IMG/VR virus record: IMGVR_UViG_3300049273_000019
Location: 1 to 58,890 of that record
Length of the DNA stretch: 58,890 nucleotides
DNA from: a virus
Taxonomy: Duplodnaviria; Caudoviricetes
Strand: one strand, 5' to 3'
A program made the translations under genes and the position numbers. The notes beneath the pieces were generated by a model. It saw nothing but the letters and a program-made list of their open reading frames with translations, searched no databases and had not been told where the DNA came from. This document shows, one piece after another, positions 6,173-53,038 of this stretch (positions are counted from its first letter, which is position 1; the number at the start of each line of letters is the position of its first letter).

Positions 6173-8851
6173 TCAGCCTTCCACCGCGAGCCAGCGGAAC
6201 GTGATCTGCGTGGTGATGACCGCGCCTGACGCGTCGAACCACCTGCTCCGGAACTTGGTCTCGTCGATGCCGTCGACCATGTGCTGATAGGGGCTGTTGC
6301 CGCCGCTGATCGGTGACTCCCCCTCCAGAGTGACGATCGCCGGCACGAAGCCCGAGTTGTGTGTGACCGTGAGGTACCCCGACGAGTTCGGCGTGCCGGT
6401 GACGGTTCCGGTCTTCACGAGTTTCTCCTCATCGATCGGACGGATGTCAGGGCCCGGTTGCAGCAGGATCGGGCGTACCCGGCCGTCCCTGGTGTCGAGT
6501 TCCCAGCCGATCACCCGGGCCTGCGTCTGGATGCGGTTCGGGTGACGGTGGCCGATCAGGTCCAGTCCGGCGTCGTCACCCAACAGCCAGTCCACGTTCA
6601 ACCGCGGACTGGCGTCCCACCTGGACAGGACCTGCCATGTCACCGACCCGCCAGCGAGCCGCGCCAGTTCGGCGGCTGCGTGCGCGTCCAGGTCGGCGAC
6701 CGTCAGCGGTGTCGACGACGTCGGCGTGAACCTGCGCTCCCACCTGGCCTTGCCGGCTGGTGTGCCGACTGCTGGGGTGGATTGTGGCCGGGCGGCGCCT
6801 TCGCCGATCCCTGTGGCGATCACGTAGTCGGCGGCGCGGCCGTCGGTGTGGTCTTCCACCAGTGTGTATGTGGCTTCGGAAGCGGCCCGTGATCCGAACA
6901 CGCTGGCGGCGGTCACCGTGAACACCGGGTTCGGCGTAGGGGACGCCGTGCCGATGCGCGGCCGAATGCGGATGATCTTCGCCACCGCTCTGCGCTCCGC
7001 CGTCACCCAGTCAAGGTCAACCGTCCACTCCGGACCATCCCGGACGGCCATCAGCTCCCGCAGCGCGCGGTACAACGACACGTCGTCCCGGTCGCGGTAG
7101 CCGCGGTTTCGGAGCCGACCGGTCGGCACCGCGTCGATGATGAAGTTGCCGCCGGCCTTGTTAGCTTCGGCGGCGAGACCAGCACCGATCACGCTCACTT
7201 CGTCGTGTGCCGTCCACGCGTGGTCTCCGACGTAGACGTGCTCCAGGTAGCCCTCGACCGAAACGCAGCCGAGTACGAGGTCAGCGTCAGTGCCACCACG
7301 GCGGATCATCGGGATGCCACCCCACGATGGGACGTCGTGGACCACCTGCACCAACATCGTCCGCCGCGGCGTCGTCGCGGATTCCAGCAGGTCGATCGGG
7401 ACGTGGCCGGGCCCGCTCAGCGGGATCGGCACTCGCAGCTCCGTACTGGTGTACGCGCCGAGTACCCGGGACGTAGGCCCCTGCACATCCGGCAGTTCGG
7501 CGATCACGTCGCCGGATTCGAATTGGCAGGCCAGCCAGGTGACCCTGGTCCGGATTTCGGCGTGTGCGACTGACGGTGGGGCAGCTGGTGGCGGTTCGGT
7601 GAGGTCGACGGTGACCGCGTGGGATCGCCACGGGATCGTGCCGACGTATCCGGTGGCCGTGACGGTGATGAAGTCGCCGGTGTCAGCGACGTCGACGATG
7701 CCGTACTGGTTCCGGCCCGGTAACCAGCCCAGGTCGTACTGTGATCCGCTGCCGGTGCTCGGTGTCGCGTCCAGGCCGGCGGCCTGGAAAATCGGGAAGT
7801 GGCCGTGTGGGTTCGCGGCTGCCGAGCACAGGCCCAGGGCGTGGCTGTCGGCGGTGATGCACCACATCTGGGTGGCCCACCCAGTGTCGGTGAGCATCTG
7901 CGCGATCTCGTCGCGTTCCACGGTGTACCCGCCGGACCACGAGTCGGGGATCGTCCCCAGCCAGGGCGTGGGGTTCAACCACACCAAGAATTCGGCGTCG
8001 CTGGTCTCCAGGACGTTGCGCATCCACGACTTCTGAGCGGTGCCCAACATCGTCTTGGCGGCCGTGTCCGGGTCACTGGAAGGGCTCCGGTCGCTACGGG
8101 TGTCGGACAGGATGAACAGCACCCGGCCGCGCTGCCACGACTGGTACACCGGTTGCGCCCCGGTACCTGCCGGCAACGCGAAGCTGGGCACCCGAAGCCG
8201 GTGCACGCGACACGCGTTGTCCCTGCCGGGCGCCGTCCTATCGGAGTCGTTGGGTCCGAAGTCATGGTCGTCCCAGATGTACGACCACGGCATGGCCTTC
8301 GCCAGCAGTTGCTGGTTCGGTTGGAGCAGGTTGTCGTCGATCAGCCGGTGGTACGTCGCCTCGGACGCGTCGGGGACGTACACCCCGGAACCGGGGTCGT
8401 AGTACGCCCAGTCACCGAGGTTGACGAAGAATCGGGGCGTCTTCGGGTGAGTCGCGATCGTCGCGAAAACCGGGTGATTTGACAAGCGGTTCGGGACGAG
8501 GACCGCGCCCTGCCCGGGGTACTGCGGTGTCGCACCCGCGTCACCGGCGACCGCGAACGCGAACGACTCTGGTTGACCAACCTGTCCAGCGGTGCGGAAT
8601 GTGCCAATCCAACTGGTATCGAGCACGCCGGCGTCCTCGACGCCGTACCAATGGTCGGTGACGGCCGGCAGCCCGGCGAGGTCGACGATCCCGGCCGAGT
8701 TCACCGTGGCGACTGGCCCGAAATACTCCGCGTTGGACAGGTCGGCGTTGGTGGCTACCACGATGCGGACGTCGCCCGTACCGGTCGCCTTGACCGAGAC
8801 CCGGGCGGTGGAGGATGTGACCCCGCCAGACCAGGCATTGACCGTCGTCAA
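6173..8851 (-). CDS. PhoD-like metallophosphoesterase fused to baseplate hub/minor tail protein
   Basis: NLGDWAYYD, WDDHDFGPND, DTRSDRS, TMLGTAQKSW and ADSH PhoD motifs (aa ~1-415); Pro-rich linker; then Gp37-like hub (WLACQFESGDVIAELP...GPEWTVD). Confidence 0.85.
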   Translation of the reverse strand: MTTVNAWSGGVTSSTARVSVKATGTGDVRIVVATNADLSNAEYFGPVATVNSAGIVDLAGLPAVTDHWYGVEDAGVLDTSWIGTFRTAGQVGQPESFAFAVAGDAGATPQYPGQGAVLVPNRLSNHPVFATIATHPKTPRFFVNLGDWAYYDPGSGVYVPDASEATYHRLIDDNLLQPNQQLLAKAMPWSYIWDDHDFGPNDSDRTAPGRDNACRVHRLRVPSFALPAGTGAQPVYQSWQRGRVLFILSDTRSDRSPSSDPDTAAKTMLGTAQKSWMRNVLETSDAEFLVWLNPTPWLGTIPDSWSGGYTVERDEIAQMLTDTGWATQMWCITADSHALGLCSAAANPHGHFPIFQAAGLDATPSTGSGSQYDLGWLPGRNQYGIVDVADTGDFITVTATGYVGTIPWRSHAVTVDLTEPPPAAPPSVAHAEIRTRVTWLACQFESGDVIAELPDVQGPTSRVLGAYTSTELRVPIPLSGPGHVPIDLLESATTPRRTMLVQVVHDVPSWGGIPMIRRGGTDADLVLGCVSVEGYLEHVYVGDHAWTAHDEVSVIGAGLAAEANKAGGNFIIDAVPTGRLRNRGYRDRDDVSLYRALRELMAVRDGPEWTVDLDWVTAERRAVAKIIRIRPRIGTASPTPNPVFTVTAASVFGSRAASEATYTLVEDHTDGRAADYVIATGIGEGAARPQSTPAVGTPAGKARWERRFTPTSSTPLTVADLDAHAAAELARLAGGSVTWQVLSRWDASPRLNVDWLLGDDAGLDLIGHRHPNRIQTQARVIGWELDTRDGRVRPILLQPGPDIRPIDEEKLVKTGTVTGTPNSSGYLTVTHNSGFVPAIVTLEGESPISGGNSPYQHMVDGIDETKFRSRWFDASGAVITTQITFRWLAVEG

Positions 8852-28633: not shown

Positions 28634-28709
28634 GGTGGCGGGGGCAGGATTTGAACCTGCGACCTCTGGGTTATGAGCCCAGCGAGCTAACCGGCTGCTC
28701 TACCCCGCT
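28634..28709 (-). tRNA. tRNA-Met(CAT), initiator type
   Basis: AGCGGGGTAGAGCAGCCGGTTAGCTCGCTGGGCTCATAACCCAGAGGTCGCAGGTTCAAATCCTGCCCCCGCCACC; three G-C pairs in anticodon stem; unpaired A1/C72; ends CC without terminal A. Confidence 0.95.
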
Positions 28710-34296: not shown

Positions 34297-35439
34297 TCAA
34301 TTCGCGAAGAGAGTGCCGAGCAGGTGTACCGGTGACCGATCCAGGGCACACCGCGAACGGTCGTACCGGCGTGTGGTCCGCGGGTCGGCGTGTCCCAGGT
34401 AGTCCTGCACATCCGGCAGCGTGGCACCGCGTTCCAGCGCGGCCGTGGCCGCTGTGTGCCGCAGCGAGTGAGGCGACAGCGCGGCGGCCTGGGGGATGCC
34501 AGCGGCCCGCGCGGTACGTCGCACCAGCCGGAACAGGTACGGCTGGGTGAGCCGCGCACCGGTGGAGGTGGCGAACAACGGGCCCGCCAACCCAGCGACG
34601 GTGACACCGGCCCGGCCGGCGCGGTCCTCCAGGTACGCGTCGAGGTCCCTACCAACCGCCGCCGGGATCGGCAGTTCCCGCCGACGGTTCCCCTTGCCGC
34701 GCACAGTGAGGGTGCGATGCCCGGCGTTGTGTCGCACGTCAGCCACGTCGGCGCGGAGGAGTTCGCCGACACGGAGTCCCAAGTCCAAGAGCATGCCGAG
34801 CATGGCGACGTTGCGCTGCGCCTGGCGGGTCGCGTCGGCGCGGGCAGCGGCAAGGAACTCCCTCGCCTGGCCGATGGTCAGCCACGCCGTCGACGACGTG
34901 TCGTGATCCACCTTCGGGCGTTTGACCGCCTTGACCGGGTTGACGGTGGCGGCCTCATTGTCGATCAGGTAGCTGTACCACGAACTGACTGCGGACAGCC
35001 GACGCGCGACCGTGGACTTCGCGGGTGGCGGATTCGTGCGGGTGGCCAGGCGCCGGGTGTACGTGTCGACGTCGGCCCGGCGTACAGCCAGTGGATCCAG
35101 GTCGGCCGCGGCGCACCAGGCGAGCCAGTCGGCCAGGTCCCGGAAGTACGCCCTGCGGGTGTGGTCGGAGGCGAACTGGGCAAGCCAGGCCGCGGTGAGT
35201 CCGGCCGGGGTATACCGGGCATCCGGTGCGGTGTCGGGCAGCGGCAGGGTGAGGACGGCGCGGACGATGTCCTGGTCGGTGGTGGCACCGGTGCGGGGGC
35301 GTGGCAGCCGGCTCACGGTCCGCTTAAGGCCTGCCGTGGCGGGCGGGGGTTCGGTAGCGGTGGCAATACGGCCGGTGACGGCAGCGGTGTCATGATCGGT
35401 TAAGGCCACGGATGCATGATAAGGGTAATTATCATGCAT
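34297..35439 (-). CDS. Tyrosine recombinase, XerC/D-like (true start may be GTG 35408 or later)
   Basis: GLRVGEL, VRGKG, PHSLRH, LGHADPRTTRRY: full catalytic set; N-terminal core-binding domain. Confidence 0.93.
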   Translation of the reverse strand: MHDNYPYHASVALTDHDTAAVTGRIATATEPPPATAGLKRTVSRLPRPRTGATTDQDIVRAVLTLPLPDTAPDARYTPAGLTAAWLAQFASDHTRRAYFRDLADWLAWCAAADLDPLAVRRADVDTYTRRLATRTNPPPAKSTVARRLSAVSSWYSYLIDNEAATVNPVKAVKRPKVDHDTSSTAWLTIGQAREFLAAARADATRQAQRNVAMLGMLLDLGLRVGELLRADVADVRHNAGHRTLTVRGKGNRRRELPIPAAVGRDLDAYLEDRAGRAGVTVAGLAGPLFATSTGARLTQPYLFRLVRRTARAAGIPQAAALSPHSLRHTAATAALERGATLPDVQDYLGHADPRTTRRYDRSRCALDRSPVHLLGTLFAN

Positions 35440-43380: not shown

Positions 43381-44033
43381 CGGTCCCTGCCTTCCGGTTT
43401 CCATATCTCGCAGTCGCAGGTGTCGCAGTGCACTTCGTGGATACCGATCAGCGACACCAGTATCGACACCGTGTGACCGTTGTGGTGGACCTCCAGGGCG
43501 CTGCGCACGTCGGCCGGCATCGCTCGGGCGTAGCCGGCCTGCCAGATTTCCCACGAGATCGATCGCCACTGCTTGTGCACCCGGATTCCGGATTCCGAGG
43601 CCTCTGTGTGGTCCGGGTCCGCGCTCTTGGTGGGTCGGGACAGATCGGCAACGGACCGGGCCCGCAGCAGCGGATCGGAAGCGGTCAGCACCACCTGAGC
43701 GGCACAGCGGTAGCCGTACTGGTAGCCACCCTCGACGGTCTGTGTGGCGAAGTCGTCCGCTTGACGGATCTCGCGGACCGCCTCGCCTGGGTAGCCGGCG
43801 TCCGTCGCCCTGCGTTCCAGATCGCTCCAGCCTTCATCGCCGAGGTATGGCGGCATCCGGTGTACCTCCTCAGCGATTTCGGCGGCGATGACGGGCCGGA
43901 CAGCGGCGGCGATCGCGCGGATTTCAGCGGTCGAGAGCATGTCTCCGACCCGATACGACCCGCCCCCCGACGAGGGGGTTTCGGCAACGGCCCGTTCGAC
44001 TGGCGTGAGGCCGGGTTCGGTTGGGGATTTCAT
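43377..44033 (-). CDS. Hypothetical protein (N-terminus paralogous to 44982..45287)
   Basis: AVAETPSS...RVGDMLS...I.AIAAAV.PVI.AE. Confidence 0.6.
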   Translation of the reverse strand: MKSPTEPGLTPVERAVAETPSSGGGSYRVGDMLSTAEIRAIAAAVRPVIAAEIAEEVHRMPPYLGDEGWSDLERRATDAGYPGEAVREIRQADDFATQTVEGGYQYGYRCAAQVVLTASDPLLRARSVADLSRPTKSADPDHTEASESGIRVHKQWRSISWEIWQAGYARAMPADVRSALEVHHNGHTVSILVSLIGIHEVHCDTCDCEIWKPEGRDR

Positions 44034-44335
44034 CGGCTCGCTCCTTCTCGGTGGGCGATTTCGCTGCCCCGGACCACCCAGCTCACATCGCCGGCGAGGG
44101 TCGCCAGGTCGGAGTCGCCCGGCTCTGCTTCGGATACCTGATCGATCGTCAGCTTGGCCGATCCCGTGGCTACCGGGGTGATCCGCCAGATCCCGGCCGC
44201 GCTGTAGACGACACGCAGGACCGTGCCGTCGGAGAAAGCGATGAGGGAATCCGGTGGGTTGTAGGCACCGAATTCTTCGACAATATCACCGTCGATTTCG
44301 ATGAGGTCGTCACTGGCCCCATGGACAGTGATCAC
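44030..44335 (-). CDS. Conserved phage hypothetical protein (GASDDL motif)
   Basis: GASDDLIEIDGDIVEEF, FSDGTVL, GIWRI. Confidence 0.75.
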   Translation of the reverse strand: MITVHGASDDLIEIDGDIVEEFGAYNPPDSLIAFSDGTVLRVVYSAAGIWRITPVATGSAKLTIDQVSEAEPGDSDLATLAGDVSWVVRGSEIAHREGASR

Positions 44336-44661
44336 AGGCTTTTTCCTCCCCCATTGTTGGATTCAGTCAGACACAATTCACAGTCCGGGTTCTCCCCCGG
44401 CTCCCAGTGGCATTCAGGGCAGTACGACGGTTCGACTTCGTTGGCCATTTCCACCAGCACGTGCCGCCAAGGTGTCGTCCGGGGATCAGCCGCGGCTTCC
44501 CTCAACGCCTGCGCGGCGTGGTACGGGCGGGCAGCGTCGAGTACGCGGCGCACCTCGGCAGTGATGTCCTCCGGCATCACGTCGTCCCCGTACTCGGTGG
44601 CGTACTCCTCCAGGAGGACCCCGGCTACGGCCCGCTCACCAGGTGTCAGTCCCTCACCCAC
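44332..44661 (-). CDS. Hypothetical protein
   Basis: Operonic overlap; C-terminal CxxC pairs. Confidence 0.55.
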   Translation of the reverse strand: MGEGLTPGERAVAGVLLEEYATEYGDDVMPEDITAEVRRVLDAARPYHAAQALREAAADPRTTPWRHVLVEMANEVEPSYCPECHWEPGENPDCELCLTESNNGGGKSL

Positions 44662-44995
44662 AGAGCTGCTCCTCTACGGCCGAAACGTGGTACTGCGCCA
44701 CCCAAGACAACCGGGACTGACCGTCAAACCGGGGCGTGTCCCGAAGCACGACCAGTTCCACGTCAGGCATGCCCCACGAGAGGGACCACGACGAGTCGGG
44801 GCGCTCGGTCAGCGCGATCACCACGCCCGTGCCGTCCCTGAACGCCTCGGGGTACTGCTCGCCTCGGTGACGCACCCGCGTGCCGACCCGCAGCCCATCG
44901 TGCTGCTCGATGTCCCGGTATCCCTGGTCGTGGAGGTCCTGGAGGATCAGGAGTAGCTGGAAATCCTCGGGAGCTGTCAGCTCAGCCACGGTCAC
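44654..44995 (-). CDS. Hypothetical phage protein
   Basis: GLRVGTRVRHRGEQYPEA, WG.PDVEL. Confidence 0.6.
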   Translation of the reverse strand: MTVAELTAPEDFQLLLILQDLHDQGYRDIEQHDGLRVGTRVRHRGEQYPEAFRDGTGVVIALTERPDSSWSLSWGMPDVELVVLRDTPRFDGQSRLSWVAQYHVSAVEEQLCG

Positions 44996-45287
44996 CGCCT
45001 CTGGCAGCGATGCTCAACGCCTGGTCCGCTGCGTCCTGCGCACGAAGCTGGATCGCCCGGTACGCGGTCTCCAGCACGGAAACGGTCAACGGGTCCCGGC
45101 CGCGGTCGCGCATGGCGCGGATCTCGGCGGCGACCTCCTGCAGCACCTCCGCCCTGATCACCGGGTGGACGGAGGCGGCGATGCCTTGGATGTCCTGTGT
45201 GGTGAGCATGTCGCCGATCCGGTGCGACGGTCCCCACGAGGACGGGGCCTCAGCGACAGCGTGCTCGGTAGCTGTCAGGTCAGGCAT
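44982..45287 (-). CDS. Hypothetical protein
   Basis: Paralogous to N-terminus of 43377..44033. Confidence 0.55.
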   Translation of the reverse strand: MPDLTATEHAVAEAPSSWGPSHRIGDMLTTQDIQGIAASVHPVIRAEVLQEVAAEIRAMRDRGRDPLTVSVLETAYRAIQLRAQDAADQALSIAARGGDRG

Positions 45288-45951
45288 GGTGGGCTCGCTT
45301 TGGGGTGGGCCAGTCCTCGGCGGCGTGCTGCTCGGCCTTGGATAGGTGCTGGTCTGGGAATTCCGGCGCCGGGCGGGCGGGGACCGGGGCGGCGGTGGAG
45401 CCGCCGCACTTGTCGCATGGGATCGGCCGCACCTGGCCGAGAAGCACCGCAGCGTTCGCCCCGGGCGGCAGGGTTTCCCACACGATCCAGGGTTCGCGAG
45501 TCTCCGTGTCGGCGAGCTGGCCACACCCGGCGCACCGGTCACAACCGTGTCCGGTGTGGCCTTCCACGGCGGCCCACAGTCGGTCGAGGGTGGAGTCCGG
45601 GACCTCCACCGAGATCGACTTTGCGGACGGCTGCGACCCGTTCAGCGGCACCGGTGGGGCCGCCTCGTCAGTCTCTAGCACCGTCTCCGGTTGGTGTTTC
45701 CGGGCGACGGCCACCAGACGGTCGACGGCGTCGAGGAGTTCCCGCTGCTCCCGCAACCGGTCCGCGCCGCCCCGCAGGTACGCGGTCGGTTCGACGAGCG
45801 GGCCGAGGGTTTCCACCTGGGCGAGGTTGTGGCGGAGCCGGTCGACTGGGGCGGTGAGCAGGATCCGCACGCCGAAGGTGACCAGGGCCATGCCGGCGCG
45901 GTACTCGGCGTCGGTCATCGGCTCCGTGTCGGCATCGACCAAGTTGGTCAC
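45280..45951 (-). CDS. Hypothetical protein with zinc finger
   Basis: CDRCAGCG...EPW..W..LP...CDKCGG. Confidence 0.6.
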   Translation of the reverse strand: MTNLVDADTEPMTDAEYRAGMALVTFGVRILLTAPVDRLRHNLAQVETLGPLVEPTAYLRGGADRLREQRELLDAVDRLVAVARKHQPETVLETDEAAPPVPLNGSQPSAKSISVEVPDSTLDRLWAAVEGHTGHGCDRCAGCGQLADTETREPWIVWETLPPGANAAVLLGQVRPIPCDKCGGSTAAPVPARPAPEFPDQHLSKAEQHAAEDWPTPKRAHHA

Positions 45952-46283
45952 GAGGTTGCTCCTTGGGTGAGGTCACGGGTCGCGATGCGGATCACCGCGT
46001 CGGTGAGTTTGTCCACGCGGGTCCGTTCGGCGAGCAGGTCGTTGCGCATGGTCCGGGCGTCGATAGCCCCGCCGTAGTGGCGGGCGAGCGCGTCGAGCAG
46101 CGCCTGGGCGAGGCCGTCGGGAAGGCGCAGCGCGGGCTCGGATCGTGTGGCCGGGTCGGCGACGGCAGTGGTGAGATCCAACGGCTGAACCACATCCATG
46201 CCGCCCGGGGTGCTGATGGCGAGGTGGATCGCCACACCGTCGACGACGATGTCGGATTCGACCTTGGCTTTCCAGGTCGTCAT
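45948..46283 (-). CDS. Hypothetical phage protein
   Basis: ATGA overlap with rep gene; LLDALARHYGG, ER.RVDKL. Confidence 0.65.
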   Translation of the reverse strand: MTTWKAKVESDIVVDGVAIHLAISTPGGMDVVQPLDLTTAVADPATRSEPALRLPDGLAQALLDALARHYGGAIDARTMRNDLLAERTRVDKLTDAVIRIATRDLTQGATS

Positions 46284-47299
46284 GAGGCTCCTTGGACGAG
46301 ACGTAGGTGACTGCCGGGCAGGCGCCGGCGGCATGCGAAGCAGGCTGGGGTGCCGTCGGGTCGACGGCGGTTGGGGAGTCCGTGGGCGCAGCGGGCGGGT
46401 TGCAGTTCGACGACGCCGGCCGGCGGCTCGGGCGTCTTCTCTTCCCCCTCAAAATTTGGATCTTGGGGGCTCGCGCGCGCGACACCGTGAGGTTGTGTGT
46501 CTACCTCAGTAGTGGTGGAGGTTAGGTCTTGTGATTGGTCCTGGAAGTTACTGCGGAACGCCGTTCCCCGTACAACAGGAACGCCGTTCCCCGTACAACC
46601 GTCGTTTGGGGGAACGCCGTTCCCCGTACAAGTTTCGGCAGGGTCCGGTTGTACGGGGTCTACCGTTCCCTGTACAAGCGGGTTATCCACAGGTGGTACG
46701 GGGTCCCCCATTCCCCGTACAACGGCCGGGTCTCGTTCTCGTACGGGGACCGTCGTTCCCTGTACAACGGTCGACTCTCGTCCTTGTACAGGGTCTCCTA
46801 CGCCGACACCAACGAGGCGGTGTCCTGACGGTCCGCGCCTCCCGCCCTGTTGACGCGTAGGTGTCAACGGCGCGGCGGGTTTCCCCGAACCGCTTCCCGG
46901 ATCGCGGTCGGCTGGCGGAGTGCGCCGCCGGTTCGCCCCCCGGATCCGCTCCGACTCCATCTCGAACTGGCCCGGGGTGAACACGTCCACCTTGTCCAGC
47001 ACCCGGGCTGCGAGGACCAGGCGGTATTCGTTCGCGCCGCCACGGCGCCGCGCACCGGCCCGCACCAGTTCCAGTAATCCGACGGTGAGCAGTTCCTTGA
47101 TGGCTTTCTTGGCGGTCTTGTAGTCCACCTCAGCCGCCACGGCGATCGTGGCCAGGCCGGGGTATATCCGCCGGCCGGTGGACCAGTCGGCGTACGTGGC
47201 CACCACCACGGCGACGCCTTTCACCGTCCGTCCCAGGCGGGCGCGTCTTACGACGTCGAGCCACTCCCGCACCGAGACGTCCTCTTCGGCCATCGGCAT
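46280..47299 (-). CDS. Replication initiator (winged-HTH)
   Basis: ATYADWSTGRRIYPGLATIA...L...GLL...NEYRL; internal repeats; C-terminal CAHG...CFACR. Confidence 0.8.
   Translation of the reverse strand: MPMAEEDVSVREWLDVVRRARLGRTVKGVAVVVATYADWSTGRRIYPGLATIAVAAEVDYKTAKKAIKELLTVGLLELVRAGARRRGGANEYRLVLAARVLDKVDVFTPGQFEMESERIRGANRRRTPPADRDPGSGSGKPAAPLTPTRQQGGRRGPSGHRLVGVGVGDPVQGRESTVVQGTTVPVRERDPAVVRGMGDPVPPVDNPLVQGTVDPVQPDPAETCTGNGVPPNDGCTGNGVPVVRGTAFRSNFQDQSQDLTSTTTEVDTQPHGVARASPQDPNFEGEEKTPEPPAGVVELQPARCAHGLPNRRRPDGTPACFACRRRLPGSHLRLVQGAS
46555..46795. repeat. Iteron cluster with DnaA box: putative replication origin
   Basis: Three exact 21-bp GGAACGCCGTTCCCCGTACAA (46555, 46578, 46611), further TTCCC(C/T)GTACAA copies, inverted GTAC(G/A)GGG copies; TTATCCACA at 46683-46691. 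Confidence 0.85.
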
Positions 47300-47441
47300 C
47301 CCCCTTGTATGTGTGAAGACCGCGCAGCGGGATTCACCCCGCTGCGCGGTCTGTTCGATTGAGACTTCGCGGAGGCCCTCCCCGACCCCCGCCAGACCGG
47401 CACACGGCACCGGCTTTCCCGGTTCAGGTGCTGTCGGCCGG

Positions 47442-47774
47442 TCACAGCCCGGTCCGTTTCAGGGCTTGCCTCTCCTGTTCGTCGAGGCCTCCCCAGACAC
47501 CGGTGTCCTTGCCGGACTGGACCGCCCACTGGAGGCAGTCGTTGACGACCGGGCAGCGGCGGCACACCGCTTTGGCGTGCTCGGTTTGCAGCAGCGCGGG
47601 CTCAGAGGTGCCGATCGGGAAGAACAATTCCGGGTCTTCGTCGCGGCAGGCTGCACGGTCACGCCAGGAGTCGCCGCATTCGTGGCCGTCGAGGGCGTGG
47701 TCTGCTTCGTGTGGGGTCTGGTGGCCGCTGCTGGTGGTGCCGCAGTCGCAGACGCGGCGGTACAGGGTGCTCAT
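47442..47774 (-). CDS. whiB: WhiB-family Fe-S transcription factor
   Basis: WRDRAACRDEDPELFFP, AKAVCRRCPV..CL, GVWGGL.E.ER. Confidence 0.95.
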   Translation of the reverse strand: MSTLYRRVCDCGTTSSGHQTPHEADHALDGHECGDSWRDRAACRDEDPELFFPIGTSEPALLQTEHAKAVCRRCPVVNDCLQWAVQSGKDTGVWGGLDEQERQALKRTGL

Positions 47775-48820
47775 CGGGTCTCCAGCGGGAAGAGGTGGCC
47801 TTGCGCAGGTTCGGCGGGCGGTCGGCGGGTGCCGTCCAGGCCGTAGATGGCGGCGTGGGCCGGATGTAGTTGGGCGTACCGATCCCACGAGGTCATCCCG
47901 GCGAGCAGGGAGTCGCCCACTGCCACGCGGGGTTTCACGGTGGCGGGGATGGCGTCGAGTCGTAGCCGGTCGAGTAGGCCGGCGCGGTGCATCAGGTCCC
48001 CGATCACCACGACCATGCGGAGCCGCGCAACCGCGGTGGTGAGCGGGTCGATGTCGACCCCGGTGACGCCGGCGAGGATCCGCTGTATCGCGGTCGCCGG
48101 GTCGACCGGGTCCCACCCGGTGACGCTGGCGGTTCGGGCCTGTCGGGGGGCCAGGGTGCCGGTGGTGTACAGCTCGTACAGGTAGTCGACGAGCCGGATC
48201 AGGAAGTGCCCGCTGCCGCACGTCGGGTCGATCGCGGACAGCACCGGCTCGTCGCGGTACTCGTCGGCGGCCGGCAGCAACGTGAGGTCGATGATGAAAT
48301 CCGCGACGAAATGCGGTGTCTGGACGAGTGCGTGCGCCTTGCGCCTGGTGTCGCTCAGCGCCTGGAGCAGGTCCCCGACCCACCATCCCGTGATGGACGG
48401 CGGCTCGTGCCCGGTCGTGTCGTACGCGAAGGACGGCGCGTCATCGCTGGCCCACCAGTCGGCCAGGTTCCGGCACACCTCATTCGGTGGTATCACGCTG
48501 GCGGCGGGGTTCCACCTTGGATCGATCAGGCAGCGGGTGGCCGGGTGGATGGCCAGGGACGCGACCGCATGCCGCAGCCAGGCCCGCATCGCGTCGGGGT
48601 GCCCGGCGATGGGCGCGCGCCGGTCGACCGCGGCTTTACGAAGCCACGCGGCTACAAGCCCGTGGTCCTCCAGCCACGCGACCAGCGCGGTGGAGTACAC
48701 CCACGCCACGGCGACTTCCCGGCGGCGTTCCTCGGGCAGCTCCGGGAGCGATTCGGCCACTGCGTCCACGTGGCCTCGCACCGCCCGGACCAGGGTGAGA
48801 GGTAGCCCGTTGTCAGGCAT
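47771..48820 (-). CDS. Truncated BREX-2 PglX-like adenine methyltransferase (SAM-binding half only)
   Basis: AVAWV..EDHGLV, GDLLQALS..RRKAHALVQTPHFV.DFIIDLTL, IDPTCGSGHFL, GVDIDP, VGDSLL; no NPPY. Confidence 0.8.
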   Translation of the reverse strand: MPDNGLPLTLVRAVRGHVDAVAESLPELPEERRREVAVAWVYSTALVAWLEDHGLVAAWLRKAAVDRRAPIAGHPDAMRAWLRHAVASLAIHPATRCLIDPRWNPAASVIPPNEVCRNLADWWASDDAPSFAYDTTGHEPPSITGWWVGDLLQALSDTRRKAHALVQTPHFVADFIIDLTLLPAADEYRDEPVLSAIDPTCGSGHFLIRLVDYLYELYTTGTLAPRQARTASVTGWDPVDPATAIQRILAGVTGVDIDPLTTAVARLRMVVVIGDLMHRAGLLDRLRLDAIPATVKPRVAVGDSLLAGMTSWDRYAQLHPAHAAIYGLDGTRRPPAEPAQGHLFPLETR

Positions 48821-49190
48821 CGCCGGCTCCCAACAGGGCGGCGGTGATCGTCTCGATCGACCGGGGCCGCTGCTCGGGCAGCGGCGGCGGAACAGGGTGA
48901 TCGGCGTCCGGTCCTGGGCACCAGACGTCACGGCACCAGTGGATGCCGTACCACGTCACGCCGCCCTGAGCGGTCAGGGCGAGCGCGGCGAGACCACGGG
49001 CCATAGCCACAAAGGCCTCGCTGCAATGGGGGCCCCCGTACATCAGGTCGTCGCCGTGCTGGGCGATGATCTGGCCGCACTCGTGGGCGGTGTCGATGCG
49101 CTGGTCGACGGTGTGCCTGCGCATCCGGTGGATTTCCATCGGCACAGCGACCTGGAGCATGTCGACCAGAAGGGACGGTAGGGCAGTCAT
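48813..49190 (-). CDS. Conserved phage hypothetical protein
   Basis: IAQHGDDLMYGG, LAL...GGVTWYGIHWC. Confidence 0.65.
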   Translation of the reverse strand: MTALPSLLVDMLQVAVPMEIHRMRRHTVDQRIDTAHECGQIIAQHGDDLMYGGPHCSEAFVAMARGLAALALTAQGGVTWYGIHWCRDVWCPGPDADHPVPPPLPEQRPRSIETITAALLGAGDA

Positions 49191-49765
49191 CAGGGGCCTG
49201 CCGTTGCCGCGGAAGCGGTCAGAGGCGTTGTTGGTATGGGCCGTACCTTCAGCGGGTCGCCCAGCAGGACCGCGGCGGTGACCCGGTGGGTCTTCTCGTC
49301 CGCGGCGGGCAGCCAGTCACGCGCCCAGACGGAGAAGTACGCCTCGGCTGGCTGCCCGGCGCGGCGGCCGGCGTCGGGAGACGGGACCCATCCGGCGCAT
49401 TCACATCCCGGATCCGGGCAGGGCTTGCCATCCACGGCGTGCGGTGTGGACCGGTAGTGCGACATCGCCCCGGTCAGCATCGGGCAGGCCCGGATCGAAT
49501 AGGCCGCGCATTCGGGGTGCATTGCCGGCTCGGACGACATGCGCCGGTCGAGGTCCCGCTGGCGCATCAAAAACACGCTGGTGTCACCCAGCGGCTGGCC
49601 GTCGATCTGGCACAGCCGGTGGATGAAGCACTGCTCGACGCGGGTGTGGTGGACGGCGCCGAGGACGTACCGGCCGTCGCCGTGGTGGATGGAGATCCAG
49701 GGGACGACCAGACCCCCGACGGTGGGACGGTGCGCGAGTGTCGTGGGGATCGGGTGCGGGTTCAC
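49190..49765 (-). CDS. Conserved hypothetical protein (Cys/His motif)
   Basis: RPTVGGLVVPW, LCQIDG, EPAMHPECAAYSIRACP. Confidence 0.7.
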   Translation of the reverse strand: MNPHPIPTTLAHRPTVGGLVVPWISIHHGDGRYVLGAVHHTRVEQCFIHRLCQIDGQPLGDTSVFLMRQRDLDRRMSSEPAMHPECAAYSIRACPMLTGAMSHYRSTPHAVDGKPCPDPGCECAGWVPSPDAGRRAGQPAEAYFSVWARDWLPAADEKTHRVTAAVLLGDPLKVRPIPTTPLTASAATAGP

Positions 49766-49877
49766 GGACTGCCCTCCATCCTGACTGTCCAAAGTGACCG
49801 GACCAGACTAGACCAAACAATACCGACGCTTGTGCGTGCATTCCGTAGGCCGGCCGGCCGCGCACTTCTCGACCCCG

Positions 49878-50252
49878 TCACGAGTTCTCACCACCCGTGG
49901 CGAGCAGGCCCGCGTCGGCGAGCGCTTGAGCGGCGGCCCGGTGGGTGGCCGGGTCACCCGCGTAGCAGGTGCCAAGGACGGCGGCGGCCGCGTCGACCTG
50001 GTCGCGACCGGCAGGCTGCTCCGGTCGCCTGGCGGCCTGGTCGAGGAGGACGAGGACCAGGCCGACGAGCTGGATCGGCGGTGTGGCGGCGAGCCAGGCA
50101 ACGGTGCGGTTGGGGATGCCGATGACCGTGTGACCGCTGCCGACGGTGGCGCGGTACGCGCGGATCTCGTCGAGCATTTCCCGGATGTGTTCACGGTGGC
50201 GAGCGATGCCCTGGTCAGCGACGGCGATGACGGCGGGGTCGAAGTCGGTCAT
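49878..50252 (-). CDS. Hypothetical protein
   Basis: ATGA overlap with upstream gene. Confidence 0.5.
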   Translation of the reverse strand: MTDFDPAVIAVADQGIARHREHIREMLDEIRAYRATVGSGHTVIGIPNRTVAWLAATPPIQLVGLVLVLLDQAARRPEQPAGRDQVDAAAAVLGTCYAGDPATHRAAAQALADAGLLATGGENS

Positions 50253-51121
50253 GCTGCCGCCTCCCGGCCGGACGGCACGCCTGGCGGGATGCTGTGGGTG
50301 CGGCGCCACCGCGCCGCCGTCCGGGACGACACTCCGAGCCGGTCGCCGATCAGATCGTCCGTTTCACCACGTCGGGCGCAAATCTTGATGATCGCGGCGG
50401 TGGTGGCGTCGGTGAGACGGTGCGGCGGCCGGCTGCCGGTGCACACCAGGTCTACGGCGGCCCAGTCCACATCGGCCGGATCCGACCCCGCAGGGAGCAC
50501 CGGTTCGGCGGCCGGGTCGTCGATCGTCTCCAGATCCCATGCCAACGCGGGCATCCATCCGTACCGGGTCGCGATCCGGAGCGACGCGGCCGAGGTCCCG
50601 TGGGCGAACTCGAGTTCGTCGAACAGTCGGCAGATCCGGGTGGCGGTCCGGGTGCGGACCATCCGATGGTCGCCTCGCAGCCAACGCCACAACGTCGATG
50701 TGGTGGTGTCCAGCCGGCTGGCCAGGTACGGCGTGGCGTGAGCCTGCACCACCAGGGCCTGCAGGCGGCGGCGACAACCGGTGCCATCGATGAGCGCGTC
50801 GGCGCTGTGGCTGGTCGGGGAAGGACGTACGGCGAGGATCGCGGCGATGGCGGACCGGTACGCCAGGGGTCGACGTCCGTTCGCGATCTCGGCGACGGTG
50901 AGTCGGTTGACATCGGCGATCGCGGCGATCTGAGCCCGAGTCATGTCCCGGGACAGCAGGCGGTTGATGTGGTCTCGGGCCTCGGTGGTGTCTCCGTAGC
51001 CGTCCCACCGGCCGGTTCTGCGGAGGTTGTAGCGGAGCCGGCTGTAGGTTCTGGAGCGTTCGCGGCATCCGCCGCAGCCGGCGGCGTACCGGGGGTGCTG
51101 GTCACAGGTCGCGGCGGCCAC
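50249..51121 (-). CDS. Multi-HTH phage DNA-binding protein
   Basis: AR.HI..L, G.RRRLQAL, W.PALAWD..TIDDP, C-terminal LGVSSRT..RWR. Confidence 0.8.
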   Translation of the reverse strand: MAAATCDQHPRYAAGCGGCRERSRTYSRLRYNLRRTGRWDGYGDTTEARDHINRLLSRDMTRAQIAAIADVNRLTVAEIANGRRPLAYRSAIAAILAVRPSPTSHSADALIDGTGCRRRLQALVVQAHATPYLASRLDTTTSTLWRWLRGDHRMVRTRTATRICRLFDELEFAHGTSAASLRIATRYGWMPALAWDLETIDDPAAEPVLPAGSDPADVDWAAVDLVCTGSRPPHRLTDATTAAIIKICARRGETDDLIGDRLGVSSRTAARWRRTHSIPPGVPSGREAAA

Positions 51122-51328
51122 CTACGTCTCCTCGCGTTCGCCGAGGATGCGGTCGCTGATGTCGTCGACGACGGGCTCGTACTCGGATGCGTCGTCAACG
51201 TGGATGGCGTTGCGTTTCGGCCGTTCGCACCTGCAGAACGGCTCGCTGCGGTGGTCGCGGCCCAGCTCGGGATCCTCGTCGAATCGGTGCGGGGTGCCGG
51301 CCGGGCGGCGGGGTCGGGTTCGGCTCAT
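51122..51328 (-). CDS. Small hypothetical protein
   Basis: PH.F..D...DH...CRC..P..NA.H; GGAGG RBS. Confidence 0.55.
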   Translation of the reverse strand: MSRTRPRRPAGTPHRFDEDPELGRDHRSEPFCRCERPKRNAIHVDDASEYEPVVDDISDRILGEREET

Positions 51329-51378
51329 CGGCGTCCCTCCAGGGACTTGCCGACCCCAGGGAGGGGCCGGCGGGTGGC

Positions 51379-51861
51379 TCACTGGACGGTCGTGAAGGTG
51401 ATGTGCGGGGTGGGTGCGGTACGGACGTGGTCGCCGAGGATCCGGATGCCGTCGGCCCAACTGGGCATCCCGGCGATGGCGGGGTGCTCGGGTTCGTGGC
51501 CGTCCAGTCCTCGGAGGATGTCGGCGTGCATACCGGTGACGAACTGAAGCTGTTCAGGTGTCAGCGGCCGGAGTTCGATGTCGCACGGATCCGGTTGCCA
51601 GCCGGTGATGACGACCGGTCCGGCGTACGGCTGCTTGCCGGCGCCGAGGACGTAGAGCAGCACCGACCCGGCGACGTTGCGCGGGTACTTCTCCGGGAAC
51701 AACAACCCGCAGTCGTTGACGAACCCCGCAAGAGCCAGATCAGCACTCAGACGCACGCGTGCCCAGCCTTCGGGGCCGACCTCGGTGGTGAGCGCGGCGA
51801 GCGTGGGCGCGGTGTCGCGGGTGTGGGCGGTTCCGTCTGCGTCGATGACGACGTAGGTCAT
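51379..51861 (-). CDS. Hypothetical protein (DUF3846-like)
   Basis: FVNDCG...PRN..GS, YAGPVVITG. Confidence 0.65.
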   Translation of the reverse strand: MTYVVIDADGTAHTRDTAPTLAALTTEVGPEGWARVRLSADLALAGFVNDCGLLFPEKYPRNVAGSVLLYVLGAGKQPYAGPVVITGWQPDPCDIELRPLTPEQLQFVTGMHADILRGLDGHEPEHPAIAGMPSWADGIRILGDHVRTAPTPHITFTTVQ

Positions 51862-51934
51862 GGTGGGTCTCCTGTGTCGGGTTGGGGAGCCGGCGCGGCG
51901 GGGGTGGGGGGTGCGGGGCCGCGCCGGCTCCGGA

Positions 51935-53038
51935 TCACGTGGTCAGCGGGGTTCGCCGGGGCGGGTACTGATCCCAGGTCCGTCCGTCCAGCACACGTCC
52001 GGCGTGCCTCTTGCCGATGCGGCACATGGTGGGTCCGTCGTCGCCGAACGGTCTGACCCACTCCCGGGTCCGGCCCGGCTGGATCGGCGGCAGGCTCATG
52101 TATTCGCGGTGGCCGTCGAGCGGCAGCCAGTCGCCCCACTGCTTCAGGTAGAACGGGACGCTGGCATCGACGCACTGGTCACGTAGCGACCGGATCCAGT
52201 CGGGGTGCACCGGCCGGGCACCCGGTCCGGTCTCACCGCCGACAACCAGCCAGTCGATCTCTGGGAACGGACGCTCCACATACGTCACCGACTTGTCGTC
52301 TGTGGAACAGGCCAGGCATTCGTAGTGCGTGCCTTGGTGGTCGCTGTCGTGTCCGGTGTGGTCGTCCGGGTTGAGATTGATGGGCCCGAGCAGTGGTTCA
52401 GCGCTGACCCACCGGACAGCGGCCGGAGTATCGAGCAGCGCCGGGATCCTGATGTTCGCCCATTTCTGGTCCTCAGCCGAAACACCAATCCAGACATTGG
52501 GAAGCGGCCACGGAACTGCGTTGGACATTCCGGATTTCAGACCGGGTATGTACGTCGGGCTGTGCGGGGTGCTTGCCCATTCCATTACGGAACGGAAATG
52601 CTCCCCCGGAACGTGGCCGGAACGGCAGTGGCACTCGTCGCGGAGGACAGACCGCATCCGGGCATGGCGTTTGGTCAGGACGATGTACGTGTGTTGTGGA
52701 GTCGCGGCCATCACAGCCCACGCGCGGGCGATGAATTCCACCGGAACGTCCTTGTGGAACAGGTCCGACATCGAACACACGAAGATCCGGCGTGGTTTCC
52801 GCCAGTGCAGCGGCCAGTCCAACCTGTCCGGCAGTAACCGCACCTCGCCGTTGAAACGGCCGCCCTCGGCGAGGCCGGCGTACGCGGGGTTGTTGCGGAG
52901 CCTGCCTGCGGTGAGCCGGGCGGCGTAGCAGCGGTCGCATCCGGGTGACATGTGTTCGCAACCGGTCACGATCGGCCAGGTCGCGCCGGGTGTGCCGTCG
53001 TCGGCGCGGGTCCATTCGACCCTTGTGCGGTCAGCCAC
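51935..53038 (-). CDS. DUF5131 / phage Gp37-Gp68 family protein
   Basis: TW.IVTGCEHMSPGCDRCYA, IFVCSMSDLFH, VSAEPLLGP, GGETG, FYLKQWG. Confidence 0.92.
   Translation of the reverse strand: MADRTRVEWTRADDGTPGATWPIVTGCEHMSPGCDRCYAARLTAGRLRNNPAYAGLAEGGRFNGEVRLLPDRLDWPLHWRKPRRIFVCSMSDLFHKDVPVEFIARAWAVMAATPQHTYIVLTKRHARMRSVLRDECHCRSGHVPGEHFRSVMEWASTPHSPTYIPGLKSGMSNAVPWPLPNVWIGVSAEDQKWANIRIPALLDTPAAVRWVSAEPLLGPINLNPDDHTGHDSDHQGTHYECLACSTDDKSVTYVERPFPEIDWLVVGGETGPGARPVHPDWIRSLRDQCVDASVPFYLKQWGDWLPLDGHREYMSLPPIQPGRTREWVRPFGDDGPTMCRIGKRHAGRVLDGRTWDQYPPRRTPLTT

Follow-up and report, generated by a model that had tools for sequence, protein, structure and literature searches.

Why would a prophage keep the N-terminal part of a bacterial defence enzyme as a gene of its own? 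The question is raised by an open reading frame (ORF) of 349 amino acids (aa) in a provirus record of IMG/VR (IMGVR_UViG_3300049273_000019; Duplodnaviria, Caudoviricetes), whose 58,890 nucleotides (nt) we refer to as the window. The ORF, here called half-PglX (protein P0001; positions 47771–48820, minus strand, as are all features of this gene and its neighbours given below), resembles the first part of PglX, the methyltransferase of the type 2 bacteriophage exclusion system (BREX-2), or phage growth limitation (Pgl). How BREX, notably Pgl, stops phages is unresolved, and an earlier reading of the DNA letters (the original prediction) had proposed that the ORF serves as a decoy against this system. 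Our analysis places half-PglX in a conserved and unstudied family that may have a role against BREX-2/Pgl. No published description of such a family was found in the literature on the PglX N-terminal domain, anti-BREX factors, truncated or phage-encoded PglX, and decoys or mimics.

The truncated PglX and its predicted fold

The open frame, its translation, the match to the BREX-2 PglX N-terminus and a structural model all support half-PglX as a protein. Against the NCBIfam model BREX_2_MTaseX (NF033451), residues 20–310 aligned to positions 43–320 of 1185 (E = 2e-48) with 164.9 bits, which is below the equivalog cut-off of 400 bits, so that the protein as a whole is not assigned to this family. 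The PADLOC model PglX (PDLC02529) was matched over positions 47–331 of 1189 (E = 2.5e-49), and the only PADLOC models matched were methyltransferase models. In Pfam, N6_Mtase reached 15.7 bits (cut-off 20.4) and MmeI_Mtase likewise remained sub-threshold. Scans of Pfam and PHROG at E ≤ 1 returned solely methyltransferase-type or unknown families, and the families of Ocr and of the lyases of S-adenosylmethionine (SAM) were not matched.

As originally described, the ORF carries the PglX motifs DPTCGSGHFL (residues 198–207) and VGDSLL (301–306) and then ends, at residue 349, without NPPY or a target-recognition region; no [NDS]PP[YFW] tetrapeptide occurs anywhere in the protein. Among 25 full-length BREX-2 PglX proteins listed, motif I lies at about 220–252, GDSL at about 314–335 and NPPY at about 338–406, some 50 residues after GDSL. 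Based on this spacing, half-PglX ends within a few residues of the expected NPPY position, where the catalytic strand would begin. For comparison, a study on Streptomyces coelicolor places NPPY of PglX at 378–381 (PMC4365076). The claim that no remainder follows also held: a tblastn search of the whole window, using the part of five full-length PglX proteins from residue 341 onwards as queries, gave no match at E ≤ 1e-3. Within 8 kb of 34 related loci (including two duplicates, L004 = L020 and L009 = L030), tblastn found no remainder either, except the NPPY stretch inside the ORFs of a sister subfamily (type B, see below). Moreover, half-PglX is encoded outside any pglW/X/Y/Z-type defence locus, its neighbours being phage early genes, and it lacks the complete β1–β7 fold and motifs IV–VIII of an active gamma-class N6-adenine methyltransferase.

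The AlphaFold2 model of half-PglX, based on an alignment of 85 sequences, is confident (predicted local distance difference test, pLDDT, 92.6; predicted template modelling score 0.90). It comprises helices at residues 8–187, a strand at 196–198, a helix, a strand at 252–256, a helix, a strand at 298–301, short helices at 312–325 and a low-confidence tail. The helices at residues 8–187 (48260–48799) form an N-terminal domain of the PglX/HsdM bundle type, according to the model helices and the superposition on Salmonella PglX. Towards its end lies QTP (167–169; 48314–48322), which we take to be motif X; P169 is invariant among 85 family members, Q167 and T168 are at least 90% conserved, and all three are conserved in full-length PglX. 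The SAM-binding loop, motif I (198–207; 48200–48229), follows β1, with D198, G202 and G204 invariant and P199, H205 and L207 at least 90% conserved. At the end of β2, GVDIDP (254–259; 48044–48061) represents the motif II region; G254 is invariant, and D258 and P259 reach at least 90% conservation within the short family, whereas 98% of full-length PglX proteins have N at the position of D258. Motif III, VGDSLL (47903–47920), lies at β3 with V301, G302, D303, L305 and L306 at least 90% conserved; it is the last element that half-PglX has in common with PglX, and the NCBIfam match stops at residue 310.

Beyond this point the protein is its own. A family-specific cap (312–325; 47846–47887; consensus EYAxLHPxLA; Y315 and P320 at least 90% conserved in the short family), with model helices at 312–318 and 320–325, replaces the segment leading to NPPY and has no counterpart in the type B or full-length rows of the alignment. 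It is followed by the tail (pLDDT 58 at residues 331–340 and 45 at 341–349) with the peptide QGHLF (340–344; 47789–47803), a QxxLF sequence of the clamp-binding type. Half-PglX is the PglX N-terminal domain plus the β1–β3, cofactor-binding half of a Rossmann fold, and the conserved motifs together with the superpositions described next suggest that it binds SAM.

Using VIA-align, residues 5–328 of the model superposed on residues 1–493 of Salmonella PglX (8c45_A) with Z 13.6 and a root-mean-square deviation (rmsd) of 3.3 Å over 268 aligned residues, and on E. coli BrxX (9ewz) with Z 13.5; the PglX/BrxX range was Z 13.3–13.6. Half-PglX thus shares with BREX-2 PglX (NF033451) and its type 1 relatives (8C45, 8Q56, 9EWZ) a helical domain at the N-terminus and an unchanged order of motifs X, I, II and III. 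It differs in its length (349 versus about 1185 aa) and in lacking NPPY, β4–β7, the target-recognition and C-terminal regions and the pglW/Y/Z neighbours. Likeness extends to the MmeI-family type IIL/IIG enzymes, type ISP, HsdM and CamA: half-PglX superposes on MmeI (5hr4; Z 13.2), DrdV (Z 13.0) and PacII (Z 13.7), and its cofactor half on gamma-class CamA bound to S-adenosylhomocysteine (SAH; Z 14.5, rmsd 2.7 Å, 137 aligned residues, to Z 14.7). In contrast to half-PglX, all of these are complete enzymes. Foldseek ranked DrdV, PglX/BrxX and MmeI at the top, and a profile search of Protein Data Bank sequences gave a marginal match to CamA only (E = 0.009).

As a side observation, BFVD contains several short phage proteins of 130–240 aa that superpose on this half of the methyltransferase, for example A0A6J5KZC0, A0A345MN74, A0A8S5TY28 and, from Prochlorococcus phage P-SSM2, Q58MW7; judging from these models, fragments consisting of the cofactor half alone may be more widespread in phages.

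The short family, its selection and its C-terminal tail

A word-indexed search in the 191–611 aa band recovered 93 relatives of half-PglX (E ≤ 2.6e-45, 42–77% identity, 204–478 aa, mostly 336–406 aa), below which there was a sharp drop to PglX fragments at 29–35% identity. In an exhaustive search of representatives of all lengths, the eight best matches had 198–478 aa and at least 145 bits, and no full-length protein was closer than a PglX of 1185 aa with 113.9 bits and 39% identity. The check for full-length homologues, which would have pointed to a recent pseudogene, therefore came out in favour of a short family. Named protein sources include Spongiactinospora, Actinomadura, Glycomyces, Streptomyces, Micromonosporaceae and Dactylosporangium, with the annotation always reading ‘hypothetical protein’. 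DNA scans detected the short gene in 12 IMG/VR contigs and 22 species genomes, the latter including Streptosporangium, Sphaerisporangium, Allonocardiopsis, Plantactinospora, Micromonospora, Virgisporangium, Rugosimonospora, Phytohabitans and Wenjunlia. All known copies lie in integrated elements or uncultivated viral contigs.

At the nucleotide level, megablast of window positions 44000–52000 gave no match. Among 72,556 plasmid records, 35 showed a match, all below 60% identity; the 20 matches listed ranged from 29.9 to 33.0% identity, included no member of the short family and, where they had an annotation, were called full-length PglX or other DNA methylases. Separately from the family, ‘DNA methylase’ or ‘N-6 DNA methylase’ ORFs on Streptomyces plasmid records of 287–518 kb (H5–H20; also L043–L056) share about 30% identity with residues 36–306 and, based on their sequences, appear to be a third, distinct PglX-like lineage.

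We aligned 85 family members of 336–463 aa. Residues D198, G202, G204, P169 and G254 are invariant, and P199, H205, D258, P259 and V301–L306 are at least 90% conserved. Comparison with 53 full-length N-termini revealed 42 positions conserved in both groups, among them A37, W40, E51, D52 and L55 (the signature of the N-terminal domain), a GDLxQ stretch, QTP, motif I, ARxR and DSLL. Conservation restricted to the short family was seen at 79 more positions, many of them aromatic.

The ratio of nonsynonymous to synonymous substitutions (dN/dS; Nei-Gojobori, 31 coding sequences, leaving out L026 with an in-frame stop, the partial L041 and the duplicates L020 and L030) was 0.22–0.37 in the five closest pairs and 0.22–0.47 in the 30 closest. 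Across all 465 pairs the median was 0.62 and the maximum 1.19; we rejected this measure and used close pairs only, because saturation and a G+C content at third codon positions of about 0.87 compress dS. Pairs that include the window are distant (dN 0.37–0.50, dS 0.8–1.3). At 30 related loci the frame was read to its stop codon, which excludes there that the relatives are assembly fragments of longer genes. Because same-length relatives recur, form a separate clade, have no full-length homologue closer than 39% identity and show low dN/dS in close pairs (below 0.5), half-PglX is well supported by sequence comparison as a stable, selected, truncated PglX derivative and not a recent pseudogene. 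The original argument against random decay is thereby upheld.

The family comprises two subfamilies. Type A, which includes the window, lacks strand β4 and carries the EYAxLHPxLA cap instead of the NPPY segment. Type B proteins (about 395–405 aa) continue for some 45 more residues and end once the helix that follows NPPY is complete; in the model of P0070 (pLDDT 91.8) this adds a strand and two helices. NPPY is kept in six of the 83 members of 330–410 aa (P0059, P0070, P0080, P0091, P0092, P0095) and in the ORFs of L012 (8001–9164), L013 (8001–9131) and L040 (7941–9125), with L041 as a fourth such locus. Since NPPY is present in 9/9 type B members examined, their NPPY strand may still have a job. 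A quick IQ-TREE analysis of 69 rows (35 type A, being the window and 34 random of 76; nine type B; 25 full-length, random of 53 and cut 45 residues after NPPY) separated short from full-length rows with a support of 100 and placed type A (99) and type B (95) each on one side of a branch, all values being Shimodaira–Hasegawa-like approximate likelihood ratio support only. The window grouped with P0003 (99) inside type A. The simplest reading of this tree is that one ancient truncation gave rise to both types. The original prediction had mentioned neither the NPPY-keeping sister subfamily nor the tail peptide described next.

In both subfamilies, QLDLF, QLSLF or QLGLF often stands a few residues before the C-terminus, and QLDLF or QLSLF is the usual ending of type B. 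Overall, Qxx[LM]F or its hexapeptide form occurs in the last 30 residues of 40/94 members and the strict form Q[LVIMA][DSGAE][LM]F in 23/94, as compared to 0/991 internal 30-residue windows of the same proteins, 0/58 full-length PglX proteins and a mean of 0.8 (maximum 5) in 1000 tail shuffles. Six members have QLDLL-like variants only. According to one publication, QL[S/D]LF, or more generally QxxLF, is the common motif by which bacterial proteins bind the clamp, and QLDLF has a high affinity of about 7 nM for the clamp of E. coli (PMC12309361). The half-PglX tail thus resembles a sliding-clamp anchor and may bind the clamp. A complex prediction of half-PglX, with its alignment, and S. coelicolor DnaN (DPO3B_STRCO) scored 0.19 against a mark of 0.32; run without controls, this speaks neither for nor against binding. 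A phage dnaN lies near three related loci (L003, L010, L011), whose tails read QTVLF or QLDLF; in the window itself, tblastn did not find dnaN (best E 1.2). As a separate observation, in a Micromonosporaceae-type subgroup (L026–L039; proteins P0056–P0089) LPGAAFPLxDFxWP replaces the QxxLF tail.

The related loci are found in prophages of actinomycetes and in other gene arrays of variable content, and their immediate neighbours are not conserved. Many contain phage early functions such as DnaB, DnaN, RusA, WhiB, DUF5131, a C5 methylase, a helicase and helix-turn-helix (HTH) regulators; the Micromonosporaceae-type loci instead carry DUF4192, M23 and A24 peptidases and DprA-like and ComM-like genes. 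A conserved partner gene was considered and rejected: the commonest neighbour cluster, c1, occurs at only seven loci, has no Pfam match, is not a PglX remainder and by eye looks like an HTH/sigma-type regulator. Such a mosaic mobile setting would be typical of accessory or anti-defence genes.

Weighing a role against BREX-2

Taking these observations together, we consider a clamp-tethered PglX mimic, which retains the SAM pocket and antagonises BREX-2/Pgl, the best reading of half-PglX, with a probability of roughly 40%. It is supported because the match to PglX covers its N-terminal part only, the predicted fold is confident, no partner half was found in the window or near the related loci, the family is under selection, its context is mosaic and mobile, the tail motif is enriched and BREX-2 co-occurs with it (see below). 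In this proposal, half-PglX, a stand-alone, non-catalytic PglX derivative with a cap and a flexible QxxLF tail in place of the lost parts, would be produced with the early and replication genes and dock on β clamps left on the replicating phage DNA. There it could act as a dominant-negative PglX mimic, either occupying the partner or partners that normally engage the N-terminal half of PglX or taking over a cofactor-dependent licensing step, and BREX-2/Pgl would then neither mark nor restrict the replicating element. The general form of this idea, that actinomycete mobile elements carry a clamp-riding, defence-derived dominant negative which captures a BREX-2/Pgl partner or a SAM-dependent step on nascent DNA, is more tentative.

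Published work on BREX offers points of contact. A 2026 survey describes the N-terminal bundle of BrxX/PglX as HsdM-like and proposes it as an interface to other BREX components, while giving the role of this conserved domain as unknown (PMC12839542). BREX defence reportedly uses SAM as a cofactor (bioRxiv 10.1101/2023.02.27.530186), and BrxB, BrxC, PglZ and PglX co-purify, although not stably (PMC13326643).

In order to relate the family to BREX-2, we counted PglX matches over the NF033451 cut-off, a census of PglX alone and not of pglW, pglY or pglZ. Such a match was present in 8/22 carrier genomes, where the full pglX was never adjacent to the short gene but in every case located on a different contig or at a distance of 5.7 Mb. 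The corresponding figures were 17/301 in an even, class-wide sample (including the unpublished G036) and 45/201 in the family of G010 (including the unpublished G510). Within this family, six of the ten carriers had a full PglX versus 39/191 of the others (rows read by eye, at most three candidates scored per genome, the ambiguous row G450 left out). Fisher's test gave p = 4.6e-5 for carriers versus the class sample and p = 0.0095 within the family, statistics that ignore phylogeny and genome size. Independently of these counts, a full-length BREX-2 pglX appears to be split over frames or interrupted by stops in G015 (C5:3003123–3006656), which carries a short copy too, and also in G382, G401 and G503; this could be assembly error, decay or phase variation.

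Several points weigh against an anti-BREX mimic. Fourteen of the 22 carrier genomes have no BREX-2 PglX over the cut-off, and the co-occurrence figures are uncorrected and limited to PglX as stated, those within the family of G010 deriving from hand-picked carriers. The short family is only 29–42% identical to real PglX, and its 79 family-only conserved positions would fit a new function as well as mimicry. The clamp-type motif occurs in 40/94 members only, while 23 members, mostly Micromonosporaceae-type, carry the different tail motif AAFPLxDFxW (two of them also with QPDLF) and 27 have none of the motifs. In the window, QGHLF, ten residues from the end by our count, is a weak variant of the family's QLDLF, and the protein nearest to half-PglX, P0003, carries QVELPTL instead. 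A tblastn search of 50,697 cultured-phage records gave no member of the family at E ≤ 1e-5. Furthermore, our literature searches turned up no work that links BREX to the sliding clamp and no BREX precedent for clamp-tethered mimicry of a defence subunit.

Some of these points lead to a different explanation, which we regard as possible: half-PglX could be a replication-linked accessory or regulatory factor without an anti-BREX role, namely a SAM/SAH-sensing domain of ancient PglX origin that is anchored on the clamp and modulates phage or host replication, repair or replication-coupled transcription. The genes for DnaB, DnaN, RusA, Rep-like and WhiB proteins adjoin it in replication and recombination modules, its tail motif points to the clamp and not to BREX, and both the 79 family-specific positions and the 14 carriers devoid of BREX-2 PglX would be in keeping with such a factor. 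Phage Mu MuC, which reportedly uses the clamp for late transcription, is an example of a clamp-using phage protein. However, the family has kept the PglX-specific signature of the N-terminal domain, full BREX-2 PglX is enriched in carrier genomes, and no conserved neighbour indicates a replication pathway. A BREX-independent, replication-linked role is thus perhaps nearly as likely as an anti-BREX role.

Considerably less probable is a modulator that benefits the lysogen, for example by superinfection exclusion, as a defence component or as a tuner of the host BREX-2 in either direction, such as one that damps the toxicity of PglX. The occurrence of copies in integrated elements or uncultivated viral contigs and in none of the cultured phages would be compatible with this, as would the presence of BREX-2 in the same genomes and the toxicity of S. 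coelicolor PglX without PglZ, reported in PMC4365076. However, the gene sits co-directionally within an early lytic-type array, overlapping its neighbours, which is no typical lysogeny or moron position, and PADLOC offers no match beyond methyltransferase models. That half-PglX is a subunit of a split or partner-dependent DNA methyltransferase, another protein giving the catalytic half and DNA recognition, appears very unlikely: the cofactor motifs are conserved and all nine type B members examined have NPPY, but neither the window nor the 8 kb flanking each of the 34 loci contains a PglX remainder, no neighbour gene is conserved and type A has no β4. An inert remnant of a degraded pglX, passively carried by the prophage, is barely credible, since the loss of the catalytic and DNA-recognition parts is outweighed by same-length relatives across many actinomycete genera in a clade of their own, close-pair dN/dS of 0.22–0.47, a compact, confident fold with a family-specific cap and the gain of a tail motif.

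Returning to the proposed anti-BREX-2 mimic, it would differ in kind from known inhibitors. The anti-BREX factors reportedly include T7 Ocr (a DNA mimic), the T3 SAM lyase, ICP1 OrbA and a haloarchaeal virion protein; half-PglX has no sequence family in common with them and would resemble them only in its proposed role, that of a mobile-element protein blocking BREX. Clamp binders of mobile elements are said to include Tn3-family TnpA, transposases of insertion sequences, a group II intron protein and phage Mu MuC. Half-PglX would share with these a short QxxLF-type peptide for reaching the host replisome; in contrast to half-PglX, they are transposases, reverse transcriptases or transcription factors, and none stems from a defence methyltransferase. 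From PglX itself, the family is set apart by its separate clade, the helical cap and the QxxLF tail.

If the proposal is true, the site at which BREX-2/Pgl acts would be the replication fork or the DNA behind it, and experiments could directly address what the N-terminal domain of PglX does. Half-PglX is a ready-made probe of this domain because it is a natural, selected, stand-alone copy in prophages that comes with a cofactor half-site and a peptide of the replisome-targeting type. Should it inhibit BREX-2, this would identify the interaction surface and show that the defence operates at the replication fork. No earlier BREX inhibitor would be known that is made from part of the system it blocks, and none at all that targets type 2 of the actinomycetes. 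If BREX-2 is not inhibited, half a methyltransferase fold that is conserved as a stable module linked to the clamp would still be unusual.

Surroundings of the gene and further features of the window

The half-PglX reading starts at ATG 48820, with GGGAG 6 nt upstream of the ATG. A longer form from GTG at 48931 is possible, but we favour the ATG because the consensus of the relatives begins at the ATG-form start. In agreement with the original description, the gene overlaps both neighbours: its stop codon overlaps, in ATGA, the start codon of a gene for a WhiB-like regulator (47442–47774, 110 aa; Pfam Whib E 5.6e-27; PHROG WhiB-like families), and its start overlaps the stop of the upstream ORF by 8 nt, ATGCCTGA. 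This upstream ORF (48813–49190, 125 aa) has no Pfam or PHROG match, and among the related loci compared a relative of it lies only near the type B gene of L040. Downstream of whiB follows a weakly replication-initiator-like ORF (46280–47410; phrog_270, replication initiation protein, E 1.7e-6; phrog_391, E 5e-4; no Pfam match).

The block is co-directional and consists of DUF5131, DUF3846, an HTH protein, two unknown ORFs, half-PglX, WhiB and the weakly Rep-like ORF. We consider it a phage early/replication block, and the position of half-PglX in it suggests early expression. A promoter and terminator scan of 46000–52000 gave no output above chance. The adjacency to whiB, whose weak conservation the original prediction had not considered, is a feature of the window: whiB lies within 8 kb at 9/34 related loci. 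Of the decoy interpretation, the stable, selected, truncated PglX derivative and its position beside whiB and a weakly Rep-like ORF were borne out; its anti-BREX part, including interference with BREX complex assembly through PglZ or PglY and sequestration of SAM, is a proposal only.

Regarding the rest of the record, the window encodes a terminase, portal, capsid/protease, tape measure, endolysin, integrase and RecE/RecT. Two soil-metagenome runs compared with it offered short contig pieces only. One run (X2) contained DNA identical to window positions 47729–48432 (0 differences in 704 bases); the element is therefore present in more than one sample, and there is no variation to analyse.

The window shows further features apart from half-PglX. 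The DUF5131 (phage Gp37/Gp68 family) protein (51935–53038, minus strand, 367 aa) covers the 243-position profile end to end and must therefore contain about 110 residues of insertion; its relatives recur close to half-PglX genes at L006, L010, L011 and L031. A tyrosine-integrase-like gene (34297–35439, minus strand) lies mid-record between the early block and the structural genes and not at an end, and a tRNA-Met gene is located at 28634–28709 (minus strand). Finally, downstream of the tape-measure gene, the first 413 residues of an 892-aa ORF (6173–8851, minus strand) match a PHROG phosphodiesterase/hydrolase family (E = 7e-105), and its product is probably a tail protein with an enzymatic domain.

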